A DNA stretch of 509 nt from Escherichia coli (GTDB lineage Bacteria > Pseudomonadota > Gammaproteobacteria > Enterobacterales > Enterobacteriaceae), in assembly GCF_003334385.1 (NCBI RefSeq), contig NZ_QOWN01000173.1; one strand, given 5' to 3'. Both the position numbers and the translations under genes were made by a program. The notes below the pieces were generated by a model. It was not told where the DNA came from. It did no database searches and saw only the letters and a program-made list of their open reading frames with translations. Positions 1 to 509 of this stretch are shown one piece after another (positions within the stretch are counted from its first letter, which is position 1; each line of letters starts with the position of its first letter).

Positions 1-28
1 GGCTCTTCCGCAACCTGGGTGGAGATTT
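1..28. repeat. Putative right terminal inverted repeat (IRR) of the ISL3-family element; exact inner boundary undetermined
   Basis: Seen in sequence: 1..28 is GGCTCTTCCGCAACCTGGGTGGAGATTT, immediately downstream of the transposase stop on the minus strand. Established knowledge, from memory and not database-checked: several ISL3 members such as IS31831 have IRs starting GGCTCTTCC/G, and family IRs are about 15-40 bp. The left end is not in the window, so the IR length cannot be confirmed by pairing. Confidence 0.45.
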
Positions 29-509
29 TCATGCCAGTGGACTCATTACCCTCTGCCTGAGTAGTTCAAATCCTGCTCGACCATACATCTGGCGTTTCAG
101 CATCTTCAGGCGATTTACATGACCTTCGACAACACCATTACTCCAGCGACTACTGATTGCCTCACATATAGCTGCAGCATCAGCTTCCATCCCCGCCGCC
201 ACGCGCCGAAATTCTGCTGAACCGCTTTCGTGGACTCGAGTGAACCAACTGCTTAGCTGTGATTTATTTTGGGTTTTCAGAATACGGTAGAACTCGAGTG
301 CCAGTTGCTGCGCTATTTTCAGCTCAGGTTCTTTTTCACACATCAGACTAATAAATCGGGAAGCATAATTTTCTTCATCCCTGGTTATTCTCCAGGGCAT
401 CAACCAGCGGCTTACCCGGGACACTGAAGGAAGTCTGACGGCAGTAGTAACCGGTGGGTTCCAGCCTTTACGCCATTTGGCAACCGCATCCCTGACGATG
501 GTTTCACTG
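29..509 (-). CDS. ISL3-family transposase, C-terminal part (DDE_Tnp_ISL3-like); 5'-truncated by the window edge, about 159 codons plus stop visible
   Basis: Seen in sequence: the minus-strand frame runs from the window edge (codon 508..506) to a TGA stop at 31..29 with no in-frame stop. The track's start at 424..422 is GTG, and the same frame upstream reads ...SETIVRDAVAKWRKGWNPPVTTAVRLPS before it. Established knowledge: the C-terminal segment WSNGVVEGHVNRLKMLKRQMYGRAGFELLRQRV (about 44..142) fits the conserved ISL3 transposase C-terminal signature, roughly SNGxxEGxNNxIKxxKRxxYG, which holds the catalytic Glu of the DDE triad (here E in VEG, codon 127..125). ISL3 transposases are about 400-450 aa, so most of the N-terminus lies beyond position 509. 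Confidence 0.85.
   Translation of the reverse strand, partial: SETIVRDAVAKWRKGWNPPVTTAVRLPSVSRVSRWLMPWRITRDEENYASRFISLMCEKEPELKIAQQLALEFYRILKTQNKSQLSSWFTRVHESGSAEFRRVAAGMEADAAAICEAISSRWSNGVVEGHVNRLKMLKRQMYGRAGFELLRQRVMSPLA

Follow-up and report, generated by a model that had tools for sequence, protein, structure and literature searches.

The transposase of the insertion sequence ISEc38 carries, inside its catalytic domain, a segment homologous to the tandem HTH of IS21-family IstA transposases, and the 18 ISEc38 copies examined all lie at one defined position within the terminal repeats of the IS21-family element IS100. We propose, with a probability of roughly 0.35, that a long subfamily of ISL3 transposases homes to the ends of IS21-family elements by means of this acquired IstA-type HTH, and that this behavior is previously undescribed. 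The parts of the proposal differ in strength: the position-specific association of ISEc38 with IS100 ends is very likely real, the HTH module is probably the determinant of target choice, and with slightly less assurance we regard the nesting of an ISL3 element in an IS21 end as new to the literature. In the searchable literature, outside which the ISfinder notes lie, we found no description of ISEc38/IS100 nesting or of ISL3 target specificity for IS21. If the IstA-like module does steer an ISL3 enzyme to IS21-family ends, it would represent natural retargeting of a transposase by a foreign DNA-binding domain placed in its insertion domain, would set one insertion sequence family to destroying another, and would account for the IS100 'ghost' tips of 21 nt seen in E. 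coli genomes. The original prediction for this DNA, that it encodes an intact ISL3 C-terminal catalytic motif, has little import as it was put; the domain insert and the IS21-end nesting are less ordinary and, if the proposal is true, matter more.

The window, by which we mean the whole stretch of 509 nucleotides analyzed, is almost certainly the right-hand 509 bp of ISEc38, comprising a 23-bp inverted repeat (IR) and the last 159 codons of a DDE transposase gene on the minus strand. At every base (509/509, 100% identity) it matches ISEc38 copies annotated on E. coli chromosomes and plasmids, and it shares its IR, stop codon and 159 C-terminal residues with the ISEc38 entry (WP_075262665.1, described by NCBI as 'ISL3-like element ISEc38 family transposase'), with no difference anywhere in the window. 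ISEc38 is an ISL3-family element of 1,722 bp bounded by the IRs GGCTCTTCCGCAACCTGGGTGGA and GGTTCTTCCGCAACTTGGGTGGA, which pair at 21 of 23 positions in full copies. The features of the window are as follows.

1..23, no strand assigned: terminal inverted repeat GGCTCTTCCGCAACCTGGGTGGA, the end downstream of the transposase gene, pairing 21/23 with the other end.
29..31, minus strand: transposase stop codon TGA, from translation of the frame.
32..508, minus strand: C-terminal 159 codons, residues 381-539 of the 539-aa ISEc38 transposase, identical to WP_075262665.1.
89..136, minus strand: putative catalytic helix, residues 505-520, with E508 at 127..125, K515 at 106..104, K518 at 97..95 and R519 at 94..92, from conservation and AlphaFold.
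152..424, minus strand: residues 409-499, predicted by AlphaFold to form six helices that make up the all-alpha portion of the catalytic insertion domain (block-mean pLDDT 82-98).
470..505, minus strand: last helix of the IstA-like tandem HTH, residues 382-393, from the alignment to PDB 8q4d/8b4h, the NCBIfam IS21 model and an AlphaFold helix.

The minus-strand frame 508..32 is open over 159 codons and forms the sole long ORF of the window, the remaining five frames holding short ORFs of 21-52 aa; it runs beyond the window edge at 509 and is thus a C-terminal fragment. Five bases separate the stop codon from the IR at 1-23. As had been predicted, neither a frameshift nor a premature stop interrupts the visible 159 codons up to the TGA at 31..29, and the codon at 127..125, GAA, encodes the Glu placed there. 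The predicted motif WSNGVVEGHVNRLKMLKRQMYGRAGFELLRQRV is also present and intact, whereas the coordinates assigned to it (142..44) are off by one codon: minus-strand 44..142 translates to SNGVVEGHVNRLKMLKRQMYGRAGFELLRQRVM (SNGVV...RVM), and the quoted peptide (W...V) lies three bases away, its true position being 145..47. The fragment matches Pfam DDE_Tnp_ISL3 (PF01610; fragment residues 33-154 to model positions 116-240 of 240, E=7e-15) and NCBIfam NF033550 (E=5e-33), where its 114.6 bits fall under the 180-bit whole-protein cut-off because the fragment is partial; judged on its sequence, the frame is far beyond chance. Base 1 of the window coincides with the outermost IR base of ISEc38, so that the window contains no flanking DNA, and the insertion context of this copy is therefore unreadable. 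A window beginning at the edge of the IS would be compatible with a short contig on which assembly stopped at the boundary of a repeat.

The original assignment to ISL3 agrees with the best matches (NF033550, PF01610 and the NCBIfam search), the closest IS being ISEc38. Against NF033550 (cut-off 180), the full-length ISEc38 transposase reaches 376.3 bits, the alignment covering profile positions 1-368 of 370; it also matches PF01610, and full-length copies carry, outside the window, a zinc ribbon (PF14690, residues 40-84) in which C43, C46, C82 and C87 are invariant. ISL3 IRs, as described by ISfinder, are about 15-40 bp long and start with GGCTCTT; positions 1-23 of the window form an IR of this type, and relatives at 31-41% protein identity start with the same GGCTCT. 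The ISL3-type 8-bp target duplication is found as TGAAAAGT around the ISEc38 core at loci L028/L031, and an ordinary 8-bp duplication, CGGAAAGT, abuts the GG end of a Streptomyces relative (L018). The conserved D, D and E of the family correspond to D163, D213 and E508, of which E508 falls within the window, and both conservation and the structural model point to a catalytic function for them. The match to the IS21 model covers only positions 2-104 of 294 at 60.7 bits (cut-off 160), and no istB lies within the 1,722 bp of ISEc38; ISEc38 is not an IS21 member and has one IS21-type module aboard. No IS256 family appears among the Pfam and NCBIfam matches of the full-length protein. The identity of the window and its C-terminal motif are ordinary and already known, ISEc38 being a catalogued element that mobile-element finders routinely report.

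Of 5,426 complete E. coli genomes, 2,991 contain window-related sequence, at 1-12 places per genome, and 304 plasmids carry it as well. The original prediction took the window copy to be plausibly active if its N-terminal part were intact. The zinc ribbon, D163, D213 and 380 codons lie upstream of the window; since neither Asp nor any of these 380 codons falls inside it, the activity of the window copy is not judgeable, and an intact C-terminal motif in 509 bases is no guide to the mobility of this copy. We think it fairly unlikely that the copy from which the window derives is dead, whether as a right-end fragment left by truncation or as a pseudogene of full length with an upstream lesion. 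Dead copies of both kinds do exist. One plasmid copy (L002 4336, NZ_CP026724.1), which matches the window at each of its 509 bases, carries Q105* and three missense changes upstream, the chromosomal copy of ~95% identity beside a ggt pseudogene has an annotated frameshift or internal stop in every example fetched, right-end fragments spanning bases 1-546 or 1-261 of ISEc38 occur, and a protein search with the 159-aa window fragment returns mostly fragments of 100-240 aa, nearly all of them pseudogene pieces. The Q105* allele, which we had expected to be common among plasmid copies, is nevertheless confined to three records, and that expectation was dropped. The records at least 99% identical to the window number 431, and about 394 of these also match the whole 1,722-bp element at 99% identity or more. 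In the collection, 83 blocks list exactly this intact protein, and up to 12-13 places matching ISEc38 occur in some genomes; for these two reasons the 100% type has probably been active recently.

The insert is seen in the way the Pfam ISL3 domain is split in the full-length protein, with residues 160-295 matching model positions 1-135, residues 413-534 matching positions 116-240, and HTH matches falling between. It spans ~117-140 aa (residues ~296-412; full protein at L001:3032-4648, minus strand), and the part within the window, 395-508, encodes residues 381-418. Residues 302-398 align with residues 10-107 of IstA (PDB 8q4d/8b4h, E=1.6e-10) and with positions 2-104 of the NCBIfam IS21 model (E=1.6e-16), the insert is 33% identical to residues 9-101 of IS100 IstA, and a Foldseek search with the AlphaFold model also finds IstA. 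By these direct comparisons the insert is homologous to the tandem HTH of IS21-family IstA and splits the ISL3 catalytic domain. It is absent from the canonical ISL3 proteins that were aligned (ISPpu12, ISKox3 and ISEc53). The best 150 representative clusters, almost all 500-590 aa in length, align end to end and carry the insert, indicating a large 'long' ISL3 subfamily of at least this many clusters. In IstA, the tandem HTH-1/HTH-2 clamps the GC-rich CS2 and CS1 boxes of each terminal repeat across an AT-rich spacer, and T92 and K95 contact the CS1 box of the IS21 terminal repeats (PMC10122671). T383 (502..500) and R386 (493..491) of ISEc38 align with IstA T92 and K95 by manual count on the 8q4d/8b4h alignment.

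The position of ISEc38 relative to IS100 was read directly from its flanks. At 18 of the 18 ISEc38 loci examined, representing about 14 distinct sites, the core lies at nt 21/22 of IS100 terminal repeats (loci L001, flanks 2980-3000 and 4723-4743, core start 3001; L008, core start 2001; and L027-L036). Across the 18 loci the flanks are TGTCACGAACGGTGCAATAGT and/or TGTCAACGACGGATGAAAAGT, or variants of these with small deletions; both flank tips match the termini of the IS21-family element IS100 at 21/21 positions, and GATCCAC follows next in IS100 (reference copies L037 3515-5467 and L038 322-2275). Since the tips are cut at nt 21/22, insertion has taken place in the AT-rich spacer of the outermost repeat of IS100, directly on the 5' side of the GATCCAC box. 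L028/L031 represent a simple insertion in which the 8-bp duplication corresponds to IS100 nt 14-21 and is followed by GATCCAC, and L004 retains 46 nt of the other IS100 end. Most E. coli copies retain the 21-nt IS100 tips only, in A/B, B/A and B/B combinations, and have no 8-bp duplication because both of their flanks are IS100 tips. Outside the tips, 5-bp direct repeats (L001 GTAAT, L008 ACAGT and L034 GGAGG) flank a 1,764-bp composite, 5 bp being the length of the IS21-family target duplication.

Two other descriptions of the flanks were rejected. An extension of the IR, which would lengthen the element to 1,764 bp, with IRs of 44 nt and a duplication of 5 bp, disagrees with the perfect IRs of distant relatives, which start at GG, with the 8-bp duplications of L018 and L028/L031, which abut GG, and with the flanks themselves, which are exact IS100 termini. 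A 47-bp MITE-like palindrome was also considered, and the 47-mer proved to be IS100 tip A joined to the last 26 nt of the other end.

In the mechanism that we propose, the HTH module, nested in the alpha-helical insertion domain, would direct insertion into the AT-rich spacer between two GC-rich boxes, with the last HTH helix and its putative CS1-contacting positions T383 and R386 encoded at window 505..470. The outcome would be disruption of the IS21-family element, often amounting to its near-complete loss, and the tip-only IS100 remnants may have formed when two insertions recombined or through intramolecular transposition. The insert as the cause of target choice is what we infer from the homology and the nesting. 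The constant tips could alternatively belong to an ancestral tip-core-tip composite that IS100 IstA/IstB moved as a unit, and so reflect no target choice, an explanation that we find improbable. It would account for the 5-bp direct repeats, the IS21-family signature, around the 1,764-bp composite at L001, L008 and L034, and none of the copies examined has a complete IS100 interior on one side. IstA, however, needs two complete terminal repeats for integration in vitro (PMC10122671), and the 21-nt tips hold less than one; moreover, the ISEc38 core is found in either orientation to the tips, and between B/B tip pairs as well. The plain ISL3-type insertion at L028/L031 and the 46 nt of one IS100 end kept at L004 argue against the composite as well, and so does a relative at 31% identity that occupies equivalent positions of a different IS21-family element in Sinorhizobium, an independent parallel.

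This Sinorhizobium fredii relative (31% protein identity; L017) lies next to nt 20/21 at one end and nt 45 at the opposite end of an IS21-family element different from IS100, an intact copy of which, with istB annotated, is present in Neorhizobium (L040 3201-5684). Each of the two Sinorhizobium junctions comes after an AT-rich stretch and just ahead of a G(A/C)CCCCC box, which is where, in relative terms, the E. coli junctions lie too. Relatives in Klebsiella, Roseomonas, Pseudosulfitobacter, Priestia and a marine metagenome have arms starting with TGT 20-22 nt outside the IS end, which are candidate IS21-family tips.

Several further observations were made at IS100 tips. A 47-bp IS100 remnant without a core (tip A + GGATC + tip B'; L010/L011 1501-1547) is present in 514 of 5,426 E. 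coli genomes, where it lies inside an IS3-family pseudogene and has its own 5-bp repeat, CTGTC. The ~95% copy beside the ggt pseudogene (L006, L007) occupies one chromosomal site and probably accounts for most of the ~2,450 records at 90-95% identity to the window; it too lies between IS100 tips, without a 5-bp repeat. The two assemblies L029 and L032 share an insertion site and differ in a small deletion within the right-flank IS100 tip next to ISEc38 (4 nt vs 8 nt), and L027 has a 3-nt deletion in an IS100 tip. At the left flank of L028 and at L037 3500-3514, IS100-type tips are preceded by GTAAGCG..., which we take to resemble IS66-family terminal repeats, and IS66-family genes neighbor several ISEc38 loci (L001, L008); this IS66-like context suggests layered nesting of IS within IS.

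The remainder of the window encodes the C-terminal part of the catalytic domain. Across 142 diverse homologues from a search of 1.84 billion proteins, the invariant acidic residues are D163, D213, D234 and E508, and H237, N241, G505 and G523 are invariant as well. A K/R at +7 from the catalytic Glu is the usual DDE signature, and K515 stands at +7 from E508. The residues that the original prediction expected around the Glu are retained, E508 being 100% conserved (142/142), and the K/R-rich stretch downstream is conserved too, with K515, K518 and R519 each at 99%. Canonical ISL3 members were reached by tblastn with the N-terminal half-domain (ISPpu12, 429 aa; ISKox3 and ISEc53, 406 aa), and with these added C43, C46, C82, C87, D163, D213, D234, H237, E508 and G523 are still invariant. 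When the alignment proposed in the original prediction was carried out, the Glu at 127..125 fell on the single invariant Glu of ISPpu12 (TNAYTESIN), ISKox3 and ISEc53 (SNGNAEALN), with no misalignment. By this comparison E508 is the conserved third acidic residue of the family, with a Lys at +7, and its conservation, predicted topology and analogy to ISCth4 suggest that it is catalytic.

The AlphaFold model of the full-length transposase, built on 84 sequences (mean pLDDT 92.9, pTM 0.84), predicts a succession of β1 (residues 159-168, with D163), β2, β3, an α-helix, β4 (209-212, followed by D213) and a further α-helix. β5 (230-233) then precedes D234, H237 lies in the next helix, and a long helical region leads to helix 505-520, near the start of which E508 is placed. 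The arrangement would correspond to an RNase H-like core in which D163 on β1, D213 after β4 and E508 on the late helix together presumably bind the catalytic metal ions. Foldseek with this model returns ISCth4 (IS256 family) first, followed by IstA, Hermes and P-element transposases. The ISCth4 triad is D175/D241/E348, with C262-x-x-H265 opening an alpha-helical insertion domain, and the +21/+24 spacing of D241/C262/H265 is the same as that of D213/D234/H237 in ISEc38 (PMC7780238). D234-x-x-H237 is likewise predicted to open a long alpha-helical insertion domain of the kind known from IS256, MULE and hAT enzymes. Of these parts the window encodes E508 with its putative basic partners K515, K518 and R519, the greater part of the helical insertion domain, and also the final helix of the second DNA-binding module. 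Copy-out/paste-in chemistry is plausible by analogy with ISCth4 and with other ISL3 members. A PDB search found no solved structure of an ISL3-family transposase, and the literature searched held neither a paper assigning ISL3 catalytic residues by experiment or mutation nor a description of an 'insertion domain' for ISL3. It is very improbable that structural reasons explain the conservation of the Glu at 127..125 and that another acidic residue, such as D490 or E372 (97% and 89% conserved within the long subfamily), completes a triad whose assignment in ISL3 is non-experimental, since E508 alone is invariant once the canonical ISL3 proteins are included, D490 and E372 vary, E372 lies within the insert that canonical members lack, and E508, with its conserved Lys at +7, stands at the start of the helix that follows the insertion domain, as the catalytic Glu of ISCth4 does.

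Compared with known systems, ISEc38 shares with canonical ISL3 elements (ISPpu12, ISKox3, ISEc53) the zinc ribbon, the D/D/E positions, the D-x-x-H, the SNG..E..N...K C-terminal motif and the GG[C/G]TCTTCC-type IR, whereas the canonical proteins are without the ~117-140 aa segment and the overall identity is about 21%. ISCth4 TnpA (IS256 family; PDB 6XGX/6XG8) is the best solved-structure match, the likeness being limited to fold and motif spacing, since identity is ~11% and whole-chain TM-scores are low; its insertion domain consists of four helices (residues 261-325), in contrast to the ~265 residues with a nested DNA-binding module in ISEc38. The N-terminal HTH-1/HTH-2 of IstA (IS5376, PDB 8B4H/8Q4D; IS100 IstA) is homologous to the internal module of ISEc38, which has neither the rve catalytic domain nor an IstB partner. 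A parallel in behavior is offered by IS4321/IS5075 of the IS110 family, whose insertions occupy a fixed position within terminal repeats of transposons of the Tn21 type. They resemble ISEc38 in occupying one defined site inside the terminal repeat of another mobile element and differ in transposase class, and we know of no DNA-binding domain that they have captured from the transposase of their victim.

Two minor observations concern target sites elsewhere. On Rhizobium etli p42d (L039), the rhizobial IS21-type terminus met in the Sinorhizobium case recurs (3201-3245), ~180 bp from the start of the transposase gene of the IS110-family element ISRel9 (3423-4589), a hint that IS21-family ends may be insertion targets for another, unrelated IS family too. 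Finally, ISKox3 and ISEc53, on different plasmids, have nearly the same sequence outside the right IR, ATGCATATACAGTAT and ATGTATATACAGTAT (L025 1317-1331 and L026 2385-2399), reflecting either a target preference or true ends that lie further out.
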